Source: a phage
Strand: one strand, 5' to 3'
Length of the DNA: 49,995 nucleotides
Sequence record: NC_105507.1
The notes beneath the pieces are model-generated. The model did not search any database and was not told the origin of the DNA. It was given only the letters and a program-made list of their open reading frames with translations. The translations under genes were made by a program, and so were the position numbers. The first letter of the stretch is position 1. Every line of letters begins with the position of its first letter. This document shows positions 1,551 to 45,763 of the stretch, piece by piece.

Positions 1551-3548
1551 ATGATTCCAAATATCGAAAAACAAATATCAGCATTAGGCGAGGCAGTAAT
1601 AAAAAGCATCCAAGAGCGATTCACGGTTGGCAATATAGTGCCTTATCCTTATCAGTGCGTTGCGTATGCAGAGATCGCAAAGCGCATGAAAAACTATGAG
1701 CATCCTTTCTTTGTTAAGGCTTCTGTATCGGCTGGCAAAACATTGATGTTTGCGATGGTTGCGGCGCAATGCCGCAAAATGGGATTGAAAATGATGGTCC
1801 TTGCTCGCCAGGCTGAAATTGTTGATCAGGATTCGGAAGAGATCAGCAATCTTGGCGTGCCAAACTCAATCTATTGCGCCGGACTGAAAACAAAAAGCGC
1901 ATACTTTCCGATCGTAGTCGGTTCTGAGGGCACTGTAGTAAACGGATTGTTTAAGTCGTTAGGTGATTATGTTCCGCACGTTATCGGTATTGATGAATGT
2001 CACCAGGTGGATTGGGAGGATCTCGCGGACGCGATAGAAAATAATGAATCTTACCAGCAGATGACCACTAAGAAGGATTTGCCAGTACTGATTGGAGAAG
2101 AACAGCAATTTGATTCCAATGGCGATCCAATGTTCGGAACAGGGCGCACACAGTACACCGTAATAATCATGGAAATGATGCGCAGGTGTCGCGAGGCATA
2201 CGGGCACGAATTGCGAATATTCGGCATGACTGGATCTGAGTTTCGCGGCGTGGTTCCAATACTGGTTGAAGATAAGAACAAAAAGGGATTCTGGCGTGAG
2301 CAAGTAACTAACATAGACACAAACTACTTAATCAAATTCGGTTCGGTAGTGCCAACAAATTTCGGCGACGTCGGCGACCTGGGGTATGACCTTTCAGAGT
2401 TCGAGGCCAGTAGCGAGGACGGCGTTTCAGACTTTGACGCTAAAACATTGCGCAAGATGGAAGAAAAGATCCATCAAGACGCAACAATGACACAGAAAAT
2501 CATGGCTAAAGTCCATGAGATATGCAAAGACAGGAACGGAGTTTTAGTTACATGCGCAGGGGAAAGGCACTGCAAGGAGGCCGCCGCCGCACTGCCGCCA
2601 GGCGTTGAATACAGGATCATAACTGGCAAGACTGGAGATAATCAGCGTAAAGAGTGGCTGAGGGAGGCATACGAGGGAAAAGTAAAATACATCTTCCAGG
2701 TACAGGCGCTTACCACTGGCGTTAACGTTCCGTTTTGGGATACTTCGGTAATGCTGAGAAAGATAGGATCTCTAACATTGCTTATCCAGCTTTTGGGGCG
2801 CGGCATGCGACTGCTTAAGCAATGGCACATTGAACAGGGATTCAAGAAAAAAGATCATCTTGTATTGGATTTTGCAGGTACTATGGATGAGTTAGGTGAT
2901 TTGTATTTCGATCCAATCCTTGAGCAAGCGCAATTCCAAAAGAGATTTACAAACGGGAAAGAGCCTAAGACTTGTCCGATATGTGGAACGCTAAACAGCT
3001 TTTACGCTCGCCGATGTATGCACGTAGACGATAACGGGAAGCGATGTGAGCATTTTTGGACTTACAGAATTTGCGAGGACCAGGTAGATCCGAGAACGAA
3101 AAAGATAATCAAGCGCGGTTGTGGAACAAAAAACGACGTAGTGGCGAGAGTATGCCGTTGTTGCGATATTTCTCTTGTCGATCCTAACGAGAAGTTAAGC
3201 GGTAAGCACTACACCAAAAACGATTGGTGCAACGTTAAATCTTTCCGCGTTGATATGACGAAAAACCAGAAAGGAATTATTTTTTGCTATGAGCTTGAGG
3301 CCAACGGCGATACGTTCAAGGCATACGAAAGATTTTTCCCTGAGTCAGAAAGCAACATTTGCCGGACGATATGGAGAAAAATAGCATTGCAGCACATACC
3401 GGATCGCAAGATTGCTGGTATGGTGGCGAGCTATAGAAATGCTCGTAAAATAATGTCATACGCTCATCACATCATGCCGCCTGTACGCGTAACGCATCGC
3501 AAAAACGGCAAAGGTGAGGATAACATTGCAAAACGGGAGTTTGTTTAA
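1551..3548 (+). CDS. SF2 DNA helicase with C-terminal Zn-ribbons
   Basis: Walker A SAGKT, DECH box, LLGRGMRL motif VI-like; C-terminal CxxC clusters. Confidence 0.85.
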   Translation: MIPNIEKQISALGEAVIKSIQERFTVGNIVPYPYQCVAYAEIAKRMKNYEHPFFVKASVSAGKTLMFAMVAAQCRKMGLKMMVLARQAEIVDQDSEEISNLGVPNSIYCAGLKTKSAYFPIVVGSEGTVVNGLFKSLGDYVPHVIGIDECHQVDWEDLADAIENNESYQQMTTKKDLPVLIGEEQQFDSNGDPMFGTGRTQYTVIIMEMMRRCREAYGHELRIFGMTGSEFRGVVPILVEDKNKKGFWREQVTNIDTNYLIKFGSVVPTNFGDVGDLGYDLSEFEASSEDGVSDFDAKTLRKMEEKIHQDATMTQKIMAKVHEICKDRNGVLVTCAGERHCKEAAAALPPGVEYRIITGKTGDNQRKEWLREAYEGKVKYIFQVQALTTGVNVPFWDTSVMLRKIGSLTLLIQLLGRGMRLLKQWHIEQGFKKKDHLVLDFAGTMDELGDLYFDPILEQAQFQKRFTNGKEPKTCPICGTLNSFYARRCMHVDDNGKRCEHFWTYRICEDQVDPRTKKIIKRGCGTKNDVVARVCRCCDISLVDPNEKLSGKHYTKNDWCNVKSFRVDMTKNQKGIIFCYELEANGDTFKAYERFFPESESNICRTIWRKIALQHIPDRKIAGMVASYRNARKIMSYAHHIMPPVRVTHRKNGKGEDNIAKREFV

Positions 3549-3967
3549 TGGCTATAACTGATAAAGGAGATTATCTTGAGTTTTACGAAAGAGATCCAAC
3601 CGACACGAGAAAGGAAGTTAATCACCAGATAGATAGCTTTCAGTGGTTGACTTATGCTCATCCTTATTTGCTAGCGTGGCATACGGTAAACGAGAATGAG
3701 AAGTCGAAAGTAACGGCGATGATTGATCAGCAGTCCGGCTTGGTTAAGGGGGTAAGCGATTTCATCATCCTGATTGGTTCAAACGGAAAATACCCCTTTG
3801 CAGCGATTGAGATCAAACGAGTGAATAAATCAGGCAAGGGGAAAGCATCACCAGTCAGCGATGAACAAAAGGCTTTTTTGCGTCGCGTTCGCAGCTTAGG
3901 AGGATTCGCTGCGGTCGCCTACGGATTTAATCAGTTTAAGTTAGCTATTGAATACATGCTTAAATAG
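3548..3967 (+). CDS. VRR-NUC domain nuclease (PD-(D/E)XK)
   Basis: DFIIL...AIEIK...Q pattern typical of VRR-NUC; ATG overlaps helicase stop (TAATG). Confidence 0.65.
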   Translation: MAITDKGDYLEFYERDPTDTRKEVNHQIDSFQWLTYAHPYLLAWHTVNENEKSKVTAMIDQQSGLVKGVSDFIILIGSNGKYPFAAIEIKRVNKSGKGKASPVSDEQKAFLRRVRSLGGFAAVAYGFNQFKLAIEYMLK

Positions 3968-4007
3968 CACTTTTTGTTAAAACTGGCGCGATGGATTGCG
4001 CCATAAT
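3965..4007 (+). promoter_or_regulatory. TAGCAC-box promoter-like cassette
   Basis: exact box TAGCACTTTTTGTTAAAAC, GGCGC/GCGCC hairpin, CATAAT 22 bp after TTGTTA. Confidence 0.55.
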
Positions 4008-4044
4008 TCAATAACACGAGATGGCTTTTAATAGCGGAGAAATG

Positions 4045-4773
4045 AAAATGGCTAAAGATATTTTAGATAAAGACACCCATGACGCATTTGTTAGCTTTGA
4101 GCAGTTGGAGAGAGAAACGTTTATAGGAAATGCTCTTGCAACTGGAGGCCATTACCAGGCAGTAAAGCCAAATCAATATTATAAGGTAAGCGGCAACCGA
4201 TACGCTGGAATCACTACGCCGGACGTTGTGCGCGATATGTGGAGCACACCTCAAGAGATCGTGGAGTGGATGGAATCAGAATTTGGCGAATACGATCTCG
4301 ACGCGGCAGCAAGCCAGGAAAACGCAGTTTGCGAGAAGTTCTATAGCAAGGAAACAAACTGCTTAAAGCGTTGGTGGGGTAGCAACAAGCACGTATGGCT
4401 TAACCCGCCGTACAGCAACCCAACTCCATTTATCAAGAAAGCAATTGAGCAAATGGAGCACAACAACCAAATTGATGTTTTGTTGCCATCCGACAACTCT
4501 ACAGCATGGTTTTATGAGGCGCAGAAAAACGCGGCTGAAATCATCTGGATCACTGGCGAGGTTTACGAAGAGGGGGGAGTGGAATATTCCCGCACCGGAA
4601 GAATCGCCTTTGTGTCTGGATTGACTGGCGAGCCTGTACAGGGCAACAATAAGGGAAGCGTGATTTTTGTCATGCGCAAACTTAAAGAAGGCGAGGAGCA
4701 GAAAACGCGATACGTTAAGATCAGCGATATTTGCCCCTCTGTAACCGAACGCCGCGCGCGCAAACGGAGCTAA
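4045..4773 (+). CDS. dam: DNA N6-adenine methyltransferase (Dam-like)
   Basis: NPPY catalytic motif (WLNPPYSNP); GGAG RBS before ATG 4045 (track ORF starts at ATG 4021). Confidence 0.8.
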   Translation, partial: KMAKDILDKDTHDAFVSFEQLERETFIGNALATGGHYQAVKPNQYYKVSGNRYAGITTPDVVRDMWSTPQEIVEWMESEFGEYDLDAAASQENAVCEKFYSKETNCLKRWWGSNKHVWLNPPYSNPTPFIKKAIEQMEHNNQIDVLLPSDNSTAWFYEAQKNAAEIIWITGEVYEEGGVEYSRTGRIAFVSGLTGEPVQGNNKGSVIFVMRKLKEGEEQKTRYVKISDICPSVTERRARKRS

Positions 4774-39055: not shown

Positions 39056-39103
39056 TGCATTTATAATGTGCAAACCAAGAAACAGCACAAAAGGTTAAAA
39101 GTC

Positions 39104-42100
39104 ATGGCTAAATATATGATAAGCGGCAGTAAGGGCGGAAGCAAAAAGCCATACGTGCCAAAAGAGATGGAAGATAACCTGATCTCGATAAACAAGATTA
39201 AAGTTTTGCTGGCTGTATCTGATGGCGAGTGCGATCCAGATTTCACGTTGCGCGATCTTTATCTTGATGATGTTCCGGTTATTGCCAGCGATGGCACTGT
39301 TAACTACGAGGGAGTTACGGCTGAATATCGACCAGGTACGCAGACGCAAGATTACATCCAGGGTTTTACTGACACATCAAGTGAGGTGACAGTTGCAAGA
39401 GATATTACAGGAGACAATCCTTATGTTATTTCTGTTACAAATAAAAATCTATCTGCGGTAAGAATAAAGATCCTGATGCCAGTAGGCATTAAAACAGAGG
39501 ATAACGGCGATCTTGTTGGCGTAAGGGTTGAGTATGCCGTAGATATGGCTGTTGATGGCGGTTCTTATAGCGAGGTTATGAGAGATGTAATTGACGGCAA
39601 GACAAGATCAGGATACGACCGCAGCAGAAGGATTGATCTTCCTAAGTTTGATGAGCGCGTTTTAATCCGAGTAAAGCGACTGACTCCAGACAGCACATCT
39701 TCAAAGGTGACTGATAAAATCAAGCTGCAAAGTTACGCTGAGGTTGTTGATGCAAAATTCCGCTATCCTCTGACTGGACTTGTATTCGTAGAATTTGACA
39801 GCGAATTGTTTCCTACGCAAATCCCTAACATTTCTATAAAAAAGAAATGGAAGATTATTAATGTGCCAAGCAACTATGATCCAATATCAAGAGAATATCA
39901 CGGGTCATGGGATGGGACTTTTAAAAAAGCGTGGTCAAATAATCCTGCTTGGGTTCTTTATGATCTGGTGACAAATCAGCGTTATGGACTTGATCAGCGA
40001 GAGTTAGGAATACAGATCGACAAGTGGAGCTTATACGAGGCGGGCGTTTACTGCGATCAGAAAGTTCCAGACGGTAAAGGCGGCACTGAGCCTCGCTACC
40101 TATGCGATGTGGTGATTCAGAATCAAGTTGAGGCTTATCAGCTAATCCGTGACATTTGCTCAATCTTTCGCGGAATGAGTTTTTGGAATGGTGAGAGCTT
40201 ATCAATCGTGATTGATAAGCCGCGCGATCCATCATACGTGTTTACTAATGAAAACGTCATCAACGGTGATTTTCAGTACACAAACGCAAGCGAAAAAAGC
40301 ATGTACACGCAGTGTAACGTGACGTTTGACGACGAACAAAACATGTATCAGCAGGACGTAGAGGGGGTTTTTGATACTGAGGCTGCATTACGATTTGGAT
40401 ACAATCCAACAAGCATTACAGCGATCGGTTGTACACGCAGGAGCGAAGCGAATCGTCGCGGTCGGTGGGTTTTGAAAACAAACCTTAGAAGCACTACTGT
40501 AAACTTTGCTACCGGACTAGAGGGGATGATTCCATCAATAGGTGATGTGATTGCTATCGCTGATAATTTTCAGAGCAGCAACCTAACGTTAAACCTATCG
40601 GGCCGAGTGATGGAAGTTTCAGGATTGCAGGTTTTCGTTCCGTTTAAGGTTGATGCTCGTCCTGGTGATTTTATTATCATCAACAAGCCGGACGGAAAGC
40701 CAGTTAAGCGCACGATCTCAAAGGTTAGCGCAGACGGAAAAACCATTGAGTTAAATATTGGATTTGGTTTTGATGTTAAGCCTGATACTGTTTTTGCGAT
40801 TGACCGTACTGACCTTGCGTTGCAGCAATACGTTGTGACAACTATCAGCAAGGGTGATGACGAAAACGAGTTTACCTATTCAATCACTGCTGTAGAGTAC
40901 GATCCGAACAAATACGACGAGATTGATTATGGAGTAAACATTGATGACAGACCGACTTCAATTGTTCAGCCTGACGTGATGGCAGCGCCTGAGAACGTTA
41001 AGATCTCATCTTATTCTCGCGTCGTGCAGGGTGTTAGCGTTGAGACTATGGTTGTTTCATGGGATAAGGTTCCTTACGCATCGCTTTATGAAATGCAGTG
41101 GCGAAAAGGTGATGGTAACTGGCTGAATACGCCGCAGACCGCTAACAAAGAGATAGAGGTAGAAGGGATTTACTCTGGCAACTACCAAGTAAGGGTGAGA
41201 TCAGTTTCTGCAAGCGGTAACGCTTCCCCGTGGTCAAAGATTGCAACCGCCACTCTGACAGGTAAAGTTGGAGAGCCAGGAGCGCCGATTAATCTTACGG
41301 CTTCTGATAATGAAGTTTTTGGCATTCGTGTCAAATGGGGTATGCCGGAAGGATCAGGCGATACGGCTTACATTGAGCTTCACCAATCGCCAGACGGAAC
41401 GGTTGAAAACTCAAGTCTGCTTACGCTGATTCCATATCCTCAATATGAGTATTGGCATAGCACGTTACCAGCGGGGCAAGTTGTATGGTATAGAATCCGC
41501 AGCGTTGACAGAATAGGCAACGTTTCAAGCTGGACTGACTTTGTTCGCGGCATGGCGTCAGATGACGTTGAATCTGTTTTGGGCGACATTCTGGACAAGA
41601 TTTTTGATACAGAAGCTGGTCAAGAAATCAAAGAGAACGCCATAGACAGTGCCAATAAAATCAAAGACCAGGCGCAATCAATCATACAGAACGCGTTGGC
41701 AAATGATGCAGATGTGAAGTGGACGCGAGTGCAAAACGGAAAGCGCAAGGCTGAATATGGTCATGCTCTTGAGCTTATCGCCAATGAAACAGAAGCGCGC
41801 GTAACTCAAATCGAAGAATTAAGGGCATCAATTGATGGCGAGATAACATCAAGCATCAAGACAGTGCAGGAGGCAATTGCCACTGAATCAGAGACGCGAG
41901 CGACTCAAATTCAGCAGCTTGATTCTAAATTCACAAAAGAAATCGACGGCGTGCGCAAGGATACTTCTGCAAGCATTAGCGATGTAAGGCAGACAATCAC
42001 TAACGAGTCAGAAGCGCGCGCTCAGGCCGTTCAGCAGCTTGACGCTAAGTTCACGAAAGAGATAAACGACCTTGACGGAGTTATCAAAACAGAAGTCGAG

Positions 42101-42682
42101 GCTAACATCTCAGAAGTGAAACAGGCGATCGCCAATGAGACAGAGGCAAGGGTTCAGGCTGACCAGGCATTAACAGCACGATTTGGCGACGTTGAATCTG
42201 CATTGGTTGAAAAGTTGGATTCTTGGGCGAGCGTTGATTCAGTTGGGGCTAAATACGCTATGAAACTTGGCCTTACTTACAAAGGCCAGCAATACAGCGC
42301 AGGAATGGTGATGCAGCTTTCGCAGGGTTCATCCGGCCTTATCTCGCAAATTTTGTTTGATGCTAACAGGTTCGCCATTATGACTAGCTCTACTGGAGGG
42401 ACTTTTACTTTGCCTTTCGTGGTTGAGAATAATCAGGTTTTCATTAATAGTCTTTTGGTGAAGAACGGTTCAATCACTAATGCGATGATTGGTAATGTGA
42501 TTCAGTCAAACAACTTTGTTCAAAACCAGCAAGGATGGAGGCTTGATAAAAACGGAATCTTTGAGAATTACGGATCAACGCCAGGAGAAGGAGCTACTAA
42601 ATTCACCAATGAGGGATTGAAGGTAAAAGATGCAAACGGAGTATTGAGGGTTGAAGTCGGAAGGATTACCGGAAGCTGGTAA
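39104..42682 (+). CDS. tail tip / host specificity protein (lambda J-like)
   Basis: about 1190 aa, synteny after I. Confidence 0.9.
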   Translation: MAKYMISGSKGGSKKPYVPKEMEDNLISINKIKVLLAVSDGECDPDFTLRDLYLDDVPVIASDGTVNYEGVTAEYRPGTQTQDYIQGFTDTSSEVTVARDITGDNPYVISVTNKNLSAVRIKILMPVGIKTEDNGDLVGVRVEYAVDMAVDGGSYSEVMRDVIDGKTRSGYDRSRRIDLPKFDERVLIRVKRLTPDSTSSKVTDKIKLQSYAEVVDAKFRYPLTGLVFVEFDSELFPTQIPNISIKKKWKIINVPSNYDPISREYHGSWDGTFKKAWSNNPAWVLYDLVTNQRYGLDQRELGIQIDKWSLYEAGVYCDQKVPDGKGGTEPRYLCDVVIQNQVEAYQLIRDICSIFRGMSFWNGESLSIVIDKPRDPSYVFTNENVINGDFQYTNASEKSMYTQCNVTFDDEQNMYQQDVEGVFDTEAALRFGYNPTSITAIGCTRRSEANRRGRWVLKTNLRSTTVNFATGLEGMIPSIGDVIAIADNFQSSNLTLNLSGRVMEVSGLQVFVPFKVDARPGDFIIINKPDGKPVKRTISKVSADGKTIELNIGFGFDVKPDTVFAIDRTDLALQQYVVTTISKGDDENEFTYSITAVEYDPNKYDEIDYGVNIDDRPTSIVQPDVMAAPENVKISSYSRVVQGVSVETMVVSWDKVPYASLYEMQWRKGDGNWLNTPQTANKEIEVEGIYSGNYQVRVRSVSASGNASPWSKIATATLTGKVGEPGAPINLTASDNEVFGIRVKWGMPEGSGDTAYIELHQSPDGTVENSSLLTLIPYPQYEYWHSTLPAGQVVWYRIRSVDRIGNVSSWTDFVRGMASDDVESVLGDILDKIFDTEAGQEIKENAIDSANKIKDQAQSIIQNALANDADVKWTRVQNGKRKAEYGHALELIANETEARVTQIEELRASIDGEITSSIKTVQEAIATESETRATQIQQLDSKFTKEIDGVRKDTSASISDVRQTITNESEARAQAVQQLDAKFTKEINDLDGVIKTEVEANISEVKQAIANETEARVQADQALTARFGDVESALVEKLDSWASVDSVGAKYAMKLGLTYKGQQYSAGMVMQLSQGSSGLISQILFDANRFAIMTSSTGGTFTLPFVVENNQVFINSLLVKNGSITNAMIGNVIQSNNFVQNQQGWRLDKNGIFENYGSTPGEGATKFTNEGLKVKDANGVLRVEVGRITGSW

Positions 42683-42710
42683 AAAAGGGGGCATAGCCCC
42701 CTTTAATTTT
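42681..42710. terminator. bidirectional rho-independent terminator
   Basis: GGGGGC ata GCCCCC flanked by A6 and T-rich run between converging genes. Confidence 0.7.
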
Positions 42711-43323
42711 AATCATAGTGTGATGCATTTATAACCAAAACAGATGAAGCGGTGTAAATACCAACAGGTCCAGGAGTTTGTGCAACCTGCCTAGAAAAAG
42801 AGTAGATCCCGTTACCATACGCGGCAGCTTGAGACTCAAAAATCATGAATCCACCTAAAGCCGGATTAGGAACAGAGTTTAATGCTGTCAGTGATGGCAT
42901 TATGGCGCAAGGATAGCCCATGTTAACATCAAATGCGATCCCGCTTACGCCTACTTGCTTTGCATCTAGCGGCCTCATTTTTCCATGATAAACCATTTCA
43001 CCATGAGCATTATAAAACGCTATGCCGTGACTACCTGGGGGAGTCACCATATTACTAAAAGCATAAACAATAACCTCACCCTGATTATCAGATCTATCAA
43101 GTCTTATTGCGTGCCTTCCACCATTGTTAAATTGCGTGAATGATATGTATGATTTAGCGGTCAATCTAACAAAGAAAAAACATACCCTATCAACAGGAAT
43201 TGACGAAGTAAAAACGGTTCCGGTATTAGCAGATATTACGGCCCGATCAATTAGATTAACTGGAGTGAAATCTGGACTTAACCATAACGATCCGTCTGAT
43301 TTTTTTATACTCATCCCGTACAT
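42709..43323 (-). CDS. hypothetical protein (reverse cassette gene 3)
   Basis: ATG 2 nt after upstream stop; track ORF starts at TTG 43335. Confidence 0.5.
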   Translation of the reverse strand: MYGMSIKKSDGSLWLSPDFTPVNLIDRAVISANTGTVFTSSIPVDRVCFFFVRLTAKSYISFTQFNNGGRHAIRLDRSDNQGEVIVYAFSNMVTPPGSHGIAFYNAHGEMVYHGKMRPLDAKQVGVSGIAFDVNMGYPCAIMPSLTALNSVPNPALGGFMIFESQAAAYGNGIYSFSRQVAQTPGPVGIYTASSVLVINASHYD

Positions 43324-43325
43324 TA

Positions 43326-43604
43326 TCACCCCCAAAAAGTATATATATATCTTGAATCAGATCCAGAAAGCCCACTCCATGTAACGGTGTCGCCACTTAC
43401 CCCTAAGTTTGGTGCGCCAGGGTCGCCACCACGCCAGGAATTCATGCCAACATATATTGCTTTCAATGATTTACCTGGCGGCCTGTTTTGGTAAGTCTTG
43501 CTACCTGATGGCTGAGTGAATTTATCAAGGAAGAAAACAGGCGTTAAAAGCCCTGTAACTTCCCTTCCTCGATCGTCATATATTGCATAACCATATTGCG
43601 CCAT
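43326..43604 (-). CDS. hypothetical protein with YDxxGR-like segment (reverse cassette gene 2)
   Basis: ORF; TAATG overlap with lipoprotein gene. Confidence 0.5.
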   Translation of the reverse strand: MAQYGYAIYDDRGREVTGLLTPVFFLDKFTQPSGSKTYQNRPPGKSLKAIYVGMNSWRGGDPGAPNLGVSGDTVTWSGLSGSDSRYIYTFWG

Positions 43605-43879
43605 TAATTACACCTCAAATCAATAAATTTACTTTCATTTTGCCAACGGTTGATAAATTTAACTTCTTTATTGTCAACGCTCAACCTGTATTGCTTTTGG
43701 CTGAATCTGTTTTCTCGGACTGCATTAATTTTGACTTCATGTAATCCGTTAACAGGGAATGTTTTAACGTTAAATTTTGCCGTGCAATCGATCTCCTTGA
43801 AGTTGCCAGTAGGCGACGCTGCGCATCCTGTCAGAGCGGCTACAGTGGCGATAACTGCGATTAACTTTTTCATCTTCAA
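43604..43879 (-). CDS. outer-membrane lipoprotein, Cor-like superinfection-exclusion candidate
   Basis: signal peptide with lipobox LTGC; AAGGAG RBS; placement next to tail genes as for cor. Confidence 0.65.
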   Translation of the reverse strand: MKMKKLIAVIATVAALTGCAASPTGNFKEIDCTAKFNVKTFPVNGLHEVKINAVRENRFSQKQYRLSVDNKEVKFINRWQNESKFIDLRCN

Positions 43880-43904
43880 TACTCCTTAGTTGTTGTTGGA
43901 TGCA

Positions 43905-43946
43905 ACTATACACGATCTTGGGCATCGCGTTTAGCAAAAAGTGCTA
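43905..43946 (-). promoter_or_regulatory. TAGCAC-box promoter-like cassette (variant) for reverse cassette
   Basis: revcomp TAGCACTTTTTGCTAAAC, TATAGT at 21-bp spacing, then AAGGAG RBS. Confidence 0.5.
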
Positions 43947-44059
43947 TTTGTTATTTTTTGTTTTCCGGTGTTATCGAATTTAAGACGGCGTAAATTTAGC
44001 GCAAAATTTAGACAACATAAGATCAATAAACAATCAACAAAATAGATATATACATATAA

Positions 44060-44205
44060 AATCAATAGTTTATTTATTTATGTATGTATATTTGTTTTTT
44101 CTTGTTATCTGCGTTTCTTGTGGTTTTGGTTGTTTGTGGTGATTTTTCTTTCTGAGTATCTGTATGTGCCATCATTCATGTGTATGTATATAATCCGGCG
44201 TATCT
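44060..44205. repeat. AT/GT-rich intergenic element, copy B (homologous to 14650-14810)
   Basis: same block order as copy A. Confidence 0.5.
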
Positions 44206-44316
44206 GAGAGAACATGGGAACAAGAAAAATAACACAAATTAATCATTAACTTATGAGTCAAATCTGTTTTCTTGCCATCTGAGAACGTTTAGAAAACAGA
44301 AAAAACAAAACAGCTA

Positions 44317-44344
44317 TTGACTAAATCAACCAAATGGCTACAAT
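44317..44344 (+). promoter_or_regulatory. sigma70-type promoter for recombination module
   Basis: TTGACT-16 bp-TACAAT about 30 bp upstream of AAGGAG RBS/ATG 44375. Confidence 0.6.
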
Positions 44345-44374
44345 GCACACATAAAGCAACAAGGAGCATTAAAG

Positions 44375-45505: not shown

Positions 45506-45763
45506 ATGACAGACAAAGACAATGCCACATTATTGCATTTAGAACGATTCATTGATCGAGTAACCATTGCAATGAAAGAATTTATTAAGCCGATGAACAT
45601 TAAAGAGTCGGAAGAAATGAAGACTTACATCAAGGACGTGGTTGCATCCATTGACAACGTTATCCTTGTTGCAACGATGAGCAAGGGAAACAAAGAGCGC
45701 GAGAGGTTGGTTGCTGAATCAACAGAAGAATTTATTAAAATGCTTGAAAGCGAGAAGGAATAA
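45506..45763 (+). CDS. hypothetical protein
   Basis: GGAG RBS; preceded by hairpin with TATAAT-like loop. Confidence 0.5.
   Translation: MTDKDNATLLHLERFIDRVTIAMKEFIKPMNIKESEEMKTYIKDVVASIDNVILVATMSKGNKERERLVAESTEEFIKMLESEKE

Follow-up and report, generated by a model that had tools for sequence, protein, structure and literature searches.

The window analysed here is a 49,995-nucleotide (nt) stretch of phage DNA (sequence record NC_105507.1), in which three intact minus-strand genes lie between a J-like tail gene and the recombination genes, where an earlier note on this sequence had placed them (Table 1). In order of transcription, they encode a lipoprotein and two further proteins, which we call S and L. 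The region belongs to a Warwickvirus-like T1-type coliphage: 1.8 kb is 99.7–99.8% identical to the Escherichia/Shigella phages JLBYU19, JK16, Phunderstruck and others, and JK16 is classified in Drexlerviridae, Tempevirinae, Warwickvirus. All three genes are under purifying selection, with ratios of nonsynonymous to synonymous substitution rates (dN/dS) ranging from 0.05 to 0.17 (against phage tonijn: lipoprotein 0.11, S 0.055, L 0.076; against phage Bas06: S 0.17, L 0.14), and are therefore far more than chance open reading frames (ORFs).

The genes had been described as overlapping, which holds for the lipoprotein and S genes (1 nt shared, TAATG) but not for S and L, which are 2 nt apart (TGAtaATG) and would overlap only with the upstream TTG at 43335 as the L start. 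For the lipoprotein, the AAGGAG Shine-Dalgarno sequence is separated from the ATG by 8 nt but from an alternative TTG at 43879 (91-amino-acid (aa) form) by only 2 nt, making the ATG the likelier start. The bidirectional terminator reported at the end of the cassette is real on both strands: a G+C-rich hairpin is flanked by T runs on both, the plus-strand terminator was called by a terminator scan, and the minus-strand RNA forms a 9-bp G+C stem followed by U6 (−15.2 kcal/mol, z = −2.8; 0 of 200 shuffles as stable). The promoter boxes said to head the cassette fared less well, as a sigma-70 scan called no minus-strand site upstream of the lipoprotein gene. A TTGCTA-N21-TATAGT block at this position is kept in the window, Bas06 and tonijn, with a variable sequence in the 21-nt spacer, and we consider it promoter-like: a putative promoter of non-canonical spacing.

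Table 1 Features of the cassette and its flanks (window coordinates)
Feature	Position	Strand	Description
J-like central tail-fibre gene	about 39101-42682	+	One flank of the cassette
3' end of J-like gene	42200..42682	+	Encodes the C-terminal ~160-aa domain
Bidirectional intrinsic terminator	42684..42704	both	Common to the J gene and the cassette
L	42709..43323	-	204 aa from ATG; predicted monomeric all-beta ('hand-like') tail-tip receptor-binding protein, BtuB-type allele
S	43326..43604	-	92 aa; probable small beta-sandwich partner of L: adaptor or phage-proximal part of the receptor-binding unit
Lipoprotein	43604..43873	-	89-aa precursor from ATG; Cor-like candidate superinfection-exclusion protein, presumed BtuB blocker
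Shine-Dalgarno AAGGAG of lipoprotein gene	43887-43882	-	
Promoter-like block	43905..43937	-	TTGCTA (43937-43932), 21 nt, TATAGT (43910-43905); conserved in relatives
RecE-like exonuclease gene	starts 44375	+	Other flank of the cassette

We compared the cassette with relatives of experimentally determined receptor. Bas04 FritzSarasin bears the window's allele (S 98.9% and lipoprotein 97.8% identical), and Bas06 KarlJaspers, a Hanrivervirus, has the same reverse cassette with products of 89, 91 and 204 aa (identity to the window: 56% for the lipoprotein, 72% for S, 64% for L); BtuB is given as terminal receptor for both phages (BASEL Table S5; Maffei et al. 2021, PMC8594841). Bas05 PeterMerian, from the window's own genus, has a J protein 97% identical to that of the window in its first 940 aa and 90.6% in its last 160, and uses FhuA (BASEL; Maffei et al. 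2021, PMC8594841). Its arrangement is of the T1 type, in which S (103 aa) and L (197 aa) share the direction of J and a reverse cor gene follows; S and L are only 29% and 26% identical to those of the window, and the lipoproteins are alike only in the signal peptide. The BtuB- and FhuA-type alleles are thus swapped on a nearly identical backbone and, since the cassette swap accompanies the receptor swap, we assign the window's allele to BtuB. An 'RBP locus downstream of gpJ' (RBP, receptor-binding protein) that predicts receptor specificity across T1-like phages has been published (Maffei et al. 2021, PMC8594841), and a 2026 preprint on 255 coliphages confirmed the correlation between RBP locus and receptor.

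Profile searches of S and L, a check that the earlier note had proposed, gave no match in Pfam or NCBIfam, while PHROGs matched both proteins: S belongs to phrog_557 ('outer membrane protein', E = 4.3e-20) and L to phrog_425 ('membrane associated protein', E = 1.8e-49, residues 1–204). The proteins ST32/ST31 of T1 and p64/p65 of 933W match the same two families, from which it follows that the FhuA-type, BtuB-type and Shiga toxin (Stx) phage S/L pairs are homologous. The family names are misleading because neither protein has a signal peptide or hydrophobic segment; no signal peptide or transmembrane segment was found in S or L, with maximum 19-residue Kyte-Doolittle means of 0.55 and 1.18. AlphaFold2 produced a confident, all-beta model of L (pLDDT, predicted local distance difference test, 89; pTM, predicted template modelling score, 0.84), uncertain only in the conserved N-terminal ~20 residues. 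A Foldseek search of the PDB with this model returned no significant match and did not recover a likeness to LptD-type RBPs, and a PDB sequence search with all three cassette proteins gave no match at E ≤ 1 except one chance hit. Matusiak et al. (2025) have modelled small immunoglobulin-like ('Ig-like') and 'hand-like' ~23-kDa proteins as tail-spike tip components of a FhuA Dhillonvirus, phi24B and a Pseudomonas podovirus; in their AlphaFold-Multimer models, a hand-like monomer sits on the C-terminal trimer of J and on FhuA or BamA. A 2026 cryo-electron microscopy and proteomics preprint (bioRxiv 10.64898/2026.04.10.717836) detected low amounts of the L homolog gp54 (204 aa) in phi24B virions and described extra density at the needle tip. 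S and L are most likely a tail-tip receptor-binding unit, a role that the earlier note had missed, and we infer that L rather than S contacts BtuB.

The first gene of the cassette had been described as encoding a lipoprotein with lipobox LTGC, and the lipobox is indeed present at residues 14–17. The precursor carries a signal peptidase II signal peptide (MKKLIAVIATVAALTG, followed by the C at +1), and its +2 residue is Ala, compatible with outer-membrane sorting; the match to Pfam LPAM_1 is weak (E = 0.062). Over its full length, the lipoprotein matches the Cor profile PHROG 1119 at E = 8.5e-8, much of the Cor profile score being due to the signal peptide, and the mature domain of the Bas06 lipoprotein alone matches the Cor profile at E = 0.028. 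As in the Cor family, the mature domain is small, with two conserved Cys (C30 and the C-terminal Cys) that align with those of T1 and Bas05 Cor, and a C-terminal motif, W/Y-x-(S/N)-E-x-(N/K)-F-x4-C, is common to all three proteins. The lipoprotein allele co-varies with the S/L allele: identity to the BtuB-type protein of Bas06 is the 56% given above, and FhuA-type Cor matches only in the signal peptide. Its position relative to the receptor-binding genes is that of Cor, Rtp45 and Llp, and receptor-blocking lipoproteins encoded beside RBP genes have experimental precedents in T5 Llp/FhuA, Rtp45/LptD and BF23/DT57C Llp/BtuB. The proposal that the protein blocks a receptor and thereby excludes superinfecting phages is the best reading of the lipobox, the two Cys, the weak full-length Cor match and the position next to receptor-binding genes. 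The likeness to Cor stands in part only, as the profile match is weak and below the cutoff, and the receptor linked to this allele is BtuB and not Cor's FhuA. We named the protein Cor-like, not Cor, because the profile scores are weak and there is none without the signal peptide. By analogy with the experimental precedents, it would bind BtuB and exclude phages.

Our preferred explanation, to which we give a probability of about 0.72, is that the cassette is the BtuB-specific allele of a host-recognition and self-exclusion module located directly downstream of J in T1-like siphoviruses. L, as a soluble all-beta protein, would cap the trimeric J fibre at its C-terminal domain and contact BtuB, the vitamin B12 transporter of the outer membrane, on its extracellular face, and this contact would lead to irreversible adsorption and trigger DNA ejection. 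S would be its obligatory small beta-sandwich partner, translated just before L, probably forming the phage-proximal part of the binding unit and fused covalently to the L N-terminus in some prophages; this mode of S–L–J assembly is one that we infer. The lipoprotein would bind BtuB from the periplasmic side, and BtuB so occupied would keep the same and other BtuB-dependent phages off the infected cell or its debris. The division of labour between S and L could be the reverse, with S forming a trimeric Ig-like cap over the J trimer and binding BtuB, and L serving as a chaperone or accessory cap without receptor contact. S matches L in allele specificity (identity of 72% to S of Bas06 but 29% to that of Bas05), lambda gpJ has a C-terminal Ig-like receptor-binding domain that S homologs resemble according to Matusiak et al., who also modelled S trimers on J, and S–L fusions act as one unit in which the contact surface could be in either part. 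We consider this arrangement unlikely.

Several observations weigh against the explanation that we prefer. The AlphaFold2 model of S, a small beta-sandwich, is of moderate quality (pLDDT 70) and gave no informative fold match, and phi24B gp55, the S homolog, was undetected in virions (bioRxiv 10.64898/2026.04.10.717836). The lipoprotein scored 19.3 bits (E = 8.3e-4) against the NCBIfam Cor model NF047972, short of the curated cutoff of 31; its mature domain alone had no match to PHROG 1119, and a tblastn search of phage records found no similarity to the BtuB-blocking Llp of T5-like, BF23-type phages. Genetic data come from Mondal et al. (PMC5155283), who made in-frame deletions of nearly all unknown-function genes in the Stx2 phage Sp5, with primers that include those for ORF72 (ECs1234, 92 aa) and ORF73 (ECs1235, 205 aa), the homologs of S and L. 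Neither ORF is among the nine mutants without plaques and lysogenisation on K-12, nor among the two mutants of reduced infectivity, and the S/L pair is dispensable in Sp5 under laboratory conditions. There is thus a conflict in the literature between these genetics and the view of the L homolog as the BamA-binding RBP of short-tailed Stx phages (bioRxiv 10.64898/2026.04.10.717836). Because the Sp5 mutants are infectious, we have less confidence in L as an essential RBP everywhere; for siphoviruses, the strongest argument is still that allele and receptor correlate on isogenic backbones.

The infectious Sp5 mutants lacking the S or L homolog also fit a different scheme, in which S and L are non-virion proteins produced in the infected cell as accessory parts of the exclusion system. 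In the window's allele, both share a transcript and translational coupling with the lipoprotein gene, and the KanT1 authors, who found no fold matches for the pair, proposed a role in exclusion. But neither protein has the signal peptide or hydrophobic segment mentioned above, the pair has the direction of the late tail genes in T1 and Bas05, with an annotated terminator between the T1 pair and cor, and Nonagvirus and Stx phages have the pair without the lipoprotein. The occurrence of the L homolog in phi24B virions, the seemingly RBP-like fold of L and published membrane-affinity estimates for homologs, which are far below that of Lom, also argue against such a scheme, and we regard it as quite unlikely.

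The receptor-binding explanation places L on J, and the C-terminal ~160 aa of J fit a presumed docking platform that travels together with S and L. This last portion of the window's J is 90.6% identical to that of Bas05, 85.6% to that of Bas06 and 62.5% to that of T1, and 48% to the C-terminus of J from the Nonagvirus JenP2, whose J is otherwise nearly unrelated. In 933W, the S/L pair comes directly after the needle protein p63, whose C-terminus is 23–26% identical to this portion of J as well (E = 1e-5 to 1e-6). The reading as a docking domain derives from this association with S/L in Nonagvirus and Stx podoviruses.

To survey the context, we recovered 80 IMG/VR loci with an L profile and sought J neighbours with three query sequences. 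Every one of the 80 had S immediately upstream of L and on the same strand, an order that is also found in T1, Bas05, Bas06, 933W, JenP2 and tonijn. A J-type fibre C-terminus adjoined S/L in the window and in 58 of the 80 loci, most of which were Stx-like (46/80), with the fibre C-terminus followed by S, L and then usually lom. Window-like loci, with lipoprotein, S and L convergent with J, accounted for 4/80, Nonagvirus-like loci without lipoprotein for 3/80, and loci with J, lipoprotein, S and L all co-directional for 5/80. In these last five (L083–L087; contigs mostly of 44–47 kb, locus coordinates ~3135–4606), the trio keeps its internal order, is 38–44% identical and directly follows J; we therefore regard lipoprotein–S–L as a mobile unit irrespective of orientation. 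The remaining 22/80 had no detectable J-type neighbour and lay on contigs that reach 114 kb (67–111 kb in those checked). Here, S (~3717–3998) and L (~4001–4612, locus coordinates; L012–L015, L017–L021 and others) are about 62% identical to the 933W pair and neighboured by unrelated ORFs of 189 aa and 332–561 aa. An S homolog is also found in the 108-kb Escherichia phage PhiR41_1. Such loci may belong to large phage-plasmids, with the pair separated from the fibre gene.

Some public records of these genes deserve correction or caution. The JK16 RefSeq record (NC_049814; locus L001, 6725–7004) omits the 92-aa S gene from its annotation. For 933W, p64 (locus L002, 6714–6995) is annotated as 75 aa, but the ORF runs to 93 aa and includes the conserved N-terminal motif; its counterpart in Sp5, ORF72, has 92 aa. 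Four records of 'Campylobacter phage' (MG065643, MG065649, MG065680 and MG065681; E6, A143, A113 and A139; 49,946 bp) carry a T1-like cassette with L 64%, S 72% and lipoprotein 52% identical to those of the window, and these 'Campylobacter jejuni' phages look like coliphage-type genomes of doubtful host assignment.

The earlier note had suggested that S and L may be a split or frameshifted single gene. The S stop codon comes after a T5G5 run (TTTTTGGGGG), through which the L frame stays open in the upstream direction; single-chain S–L proteins of 307–325 aa are known in other Enterobacterales prophages, and the LptD-type RBP is one 321-aa chain. The two are nevertheless separate genes. Their split is kept in 276–282 phage records and in 80/80 IMG/VR loci, the S stop codon is never lost, start codon and Shine-Dalgarno sequence are separate for each ORF, both are constrained by purifying selection, and they belong to two conserved families; a frameshifted or otherwise broken gene is therefore rejected. 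We also rejected programmed frameshifting at the T5G5 run, as the frame offset from S to L varies among relatives (+2 in the window, tonijn, T1, 933W and JenP2, +1 in Bas06 and 0 in Bas05), which rules out a conserved frameshift signal. That S and L are halves of one gene, whether broken by a frameshift or stop or joined by frameshifting, is highly improbable.

Single-chain forms are nonetheless informative about how the two proteins are arranged. An exhaustive L-profile search reached 169 cluster representatives with E ≤ 0.001, and 16 proteins of 307–325 aa were found when we examined the lengths of the best 150. In 14 of the 16, the L-like region starts at residue ~95–115, and a hidden Markov model of S proteins matches the first ~85 residues (best scores, 19.7–27.6 bits); the other two (P0106 and P0116) match L from the N-terminus and have a C-terminal extension instead. 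S proteins and fusions also have the motifs GSGSK(T/S)Y and SGNTVSW in common. The source genomes are of Pantoea, Pseudescherichia, Erwinia, Klebsiella, Superficieibacter and Enterobacter. Judging by these matches, natural S–L fusions exist in Enterobacterales prophages, a statement that we base on the Pantoea, Erwinia and Pseudescherichia proteins, and they place S next to the N-terminus of L. The notion that LptD-type RBPs are themselves S–L fusions is unproven, because S has no similarity to the N-terminal third of the Oekolampad RBP.

The 'YDxxGR-like segments' that had been pointed out in both S and L are real and conserved. They are copies of a beta-hairpin motif of the form [Y/W/H]G-h-x-h-x-[D/N/K]-x-x-G-x-h-h, located at residues 4–16 of S (YGYAIYDDRGREV) and at residues 2–14 (YGMSIKKSDGSLW) and 99–111 (HGIAFYNAHGEMV) of L, with a further copy in J (EGLKVKDANGVL) about 20 residues before the C-terminus. 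Y9, D10 and G13 are invariant in the S alignment; in the L alignments, G11 and G108 are invariant, and Y104 and N105 are invariant in 16 sequences and nearly so in 27. Proteins of T1, Bas05, 933W and Oekolampad bear the motif at corresponding positions. A regular expression for the motif matched five times in the 24,277 residues of all long window frames, with four of the five in J, S or L, but the expression was composed after the sequences had been seen, so that this is a descriptive count and the enrichment not a test. Only the hairpin motif (14–22 residues) aligned between S and L in BLASTP and hhalign comparisons (probability, 9–19%), and we do not claim that they are paralogs. Tentatively, and with somewhat less than even confidence, we suggest that the S+L units of FhuA, BtuB and BamA type, the S–L fusions and the LptD-type RBPs could form one superfamily of 'hand-like' tail-tip binders, monomeric, prone to gene fission and fusion and common to siphoviruses and podoviruses, in which the recurring beta-hairpin would be the docking element. 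If true, this would contradict a recent description of FhuA-, BtuB-, LptD- and YncD-specific RBPs as four unrelated families.

Beyond the cassette, window positions 43880–44374 form a ~500-bp A+T-rich non-coding spacer between the divergent cassette and recombination genes, with several plus-strand promoter-like sites (44034, 44166 and 44317) and blocks that are conserved in Bas06 and tonijn. An 85-aa ORF (45506–45763, plus strand) sits between the RecE-like and Erf-like genes; its counterpart in the JK16 RefSeq record is labelled 'tail length tape measure protein', seemingly a mis-annotation for so small a product encoded among recombination genes.

Overall, the feature is real: a BtuB-type receptor-recognition and probable exclusion cassette of a Warwickvirus-like phage, and functionally important. 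Earlier publications have already described the locus, correlated its alleles with receptors and proposed the 'hand-like' protein as the RBP, and a phage with an experimentally determined receptor carries the identical allele. What our analysis adds is the placement of FhuA- and BtuB-type pairs in one family, the S–L fusions, the rejection of the frameshift idea, the conflict with Sp5 genetics and a structural argument for the 204-aa protein as receptor binder. In practice, the cassette lets the terminal receptor of a T1-like phage be inferred from its genome, here BtuB, which can be of use in designing phage cocktails, in anticipating resistance (btuB loss) and cross-exclusion, and in re-targeting phages through cassette swaps.

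Finally, we compared the cassette with known systems. T5 pb5/Llp (FhuA) and BF23-DT57C Hrs/Llp (BtuB) likewise pair an RBP gene with a neighbouring gene for an outer-membrane lipoprotein that blocks the receptor from the periplasm, and the BF23-type Llp proves that periplasmic blocking of BtuB is possible. Unlike S and L, however, their RBPs are single chains of ~600 aa, and the locus lies elsewhere in the genome; the PDB search found no sequence likeness of the three cassette proteins to T5 pb5/Llp, and no T5-like phage was among the tblastn matches of the lipoprotein. The LptD-type module comprises the RBP of Oekolampad/Rtp44 and the lipoprotein Rtp45/SE-Oeko (Dunbar et al. 2025, PMC12685063; PDB 9RPT, 9RPS). 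Its RBP is one chain of 321 aa (PHROG 1265), in contrast to the two chains of the window, and LptD is not a TonB-dependent transporter. L matches phrog_1265 at E = 0.0091 over residues 80–120 only, which does not place it in the LptD-type family by sequence; a family-to-family hhalign comparison (135 L-type versus 59 LptD-type sequences) aligned L 49–178 with residues 163–290 of the Oekolampad RBP, co-linear but weak (probability 10.8%, E = 0.0028).

Closer to the window are the homologous pairs. In the Stx podovirus phi24B, gp55/gp54 (equivalent to 933W p64/p65 and Sp5 ORF72/ORF73) are 44–51% identical to S/L and in the same order, directly after a needle or fibre gene with a J-like C-terminus, and gp54 is found in virions; the proposed receptor is BamA, and lom follows in place of an adjacent exclusion lipoprotein. 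The 'extended cor cassette' of T1 (ST32/ST31), N15 (gp22/gp23), HK022 and phi80 has the same two families (PHROG 557/425) with the small gene before the large one, a closely related J C-terminus and an adjoining small two-Cys lipoprotein. It differs in its receptor (FhuA versus BtuB) and in S/L sequences that are 26–31% identical or beyond BLAST detection, and the lipoprotein of the window is below the Cor equivalog cutoff; in T1, the S/L pair is co-directional with J and only cor is reversed, whereas all three genes of the window form one reverse operon. The closest counterpart is the BtuB-type 'bona fide RBP locus' of the Drexlerviridae Bas04 and Bas06 (PMC8594841), which is likewise reversed, downstream of gpJ and composed of genes of 89, 91–92 and 204 aa. 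Dependence on BtuB is experimental there, and this locus has no substantive difference from the window allele.

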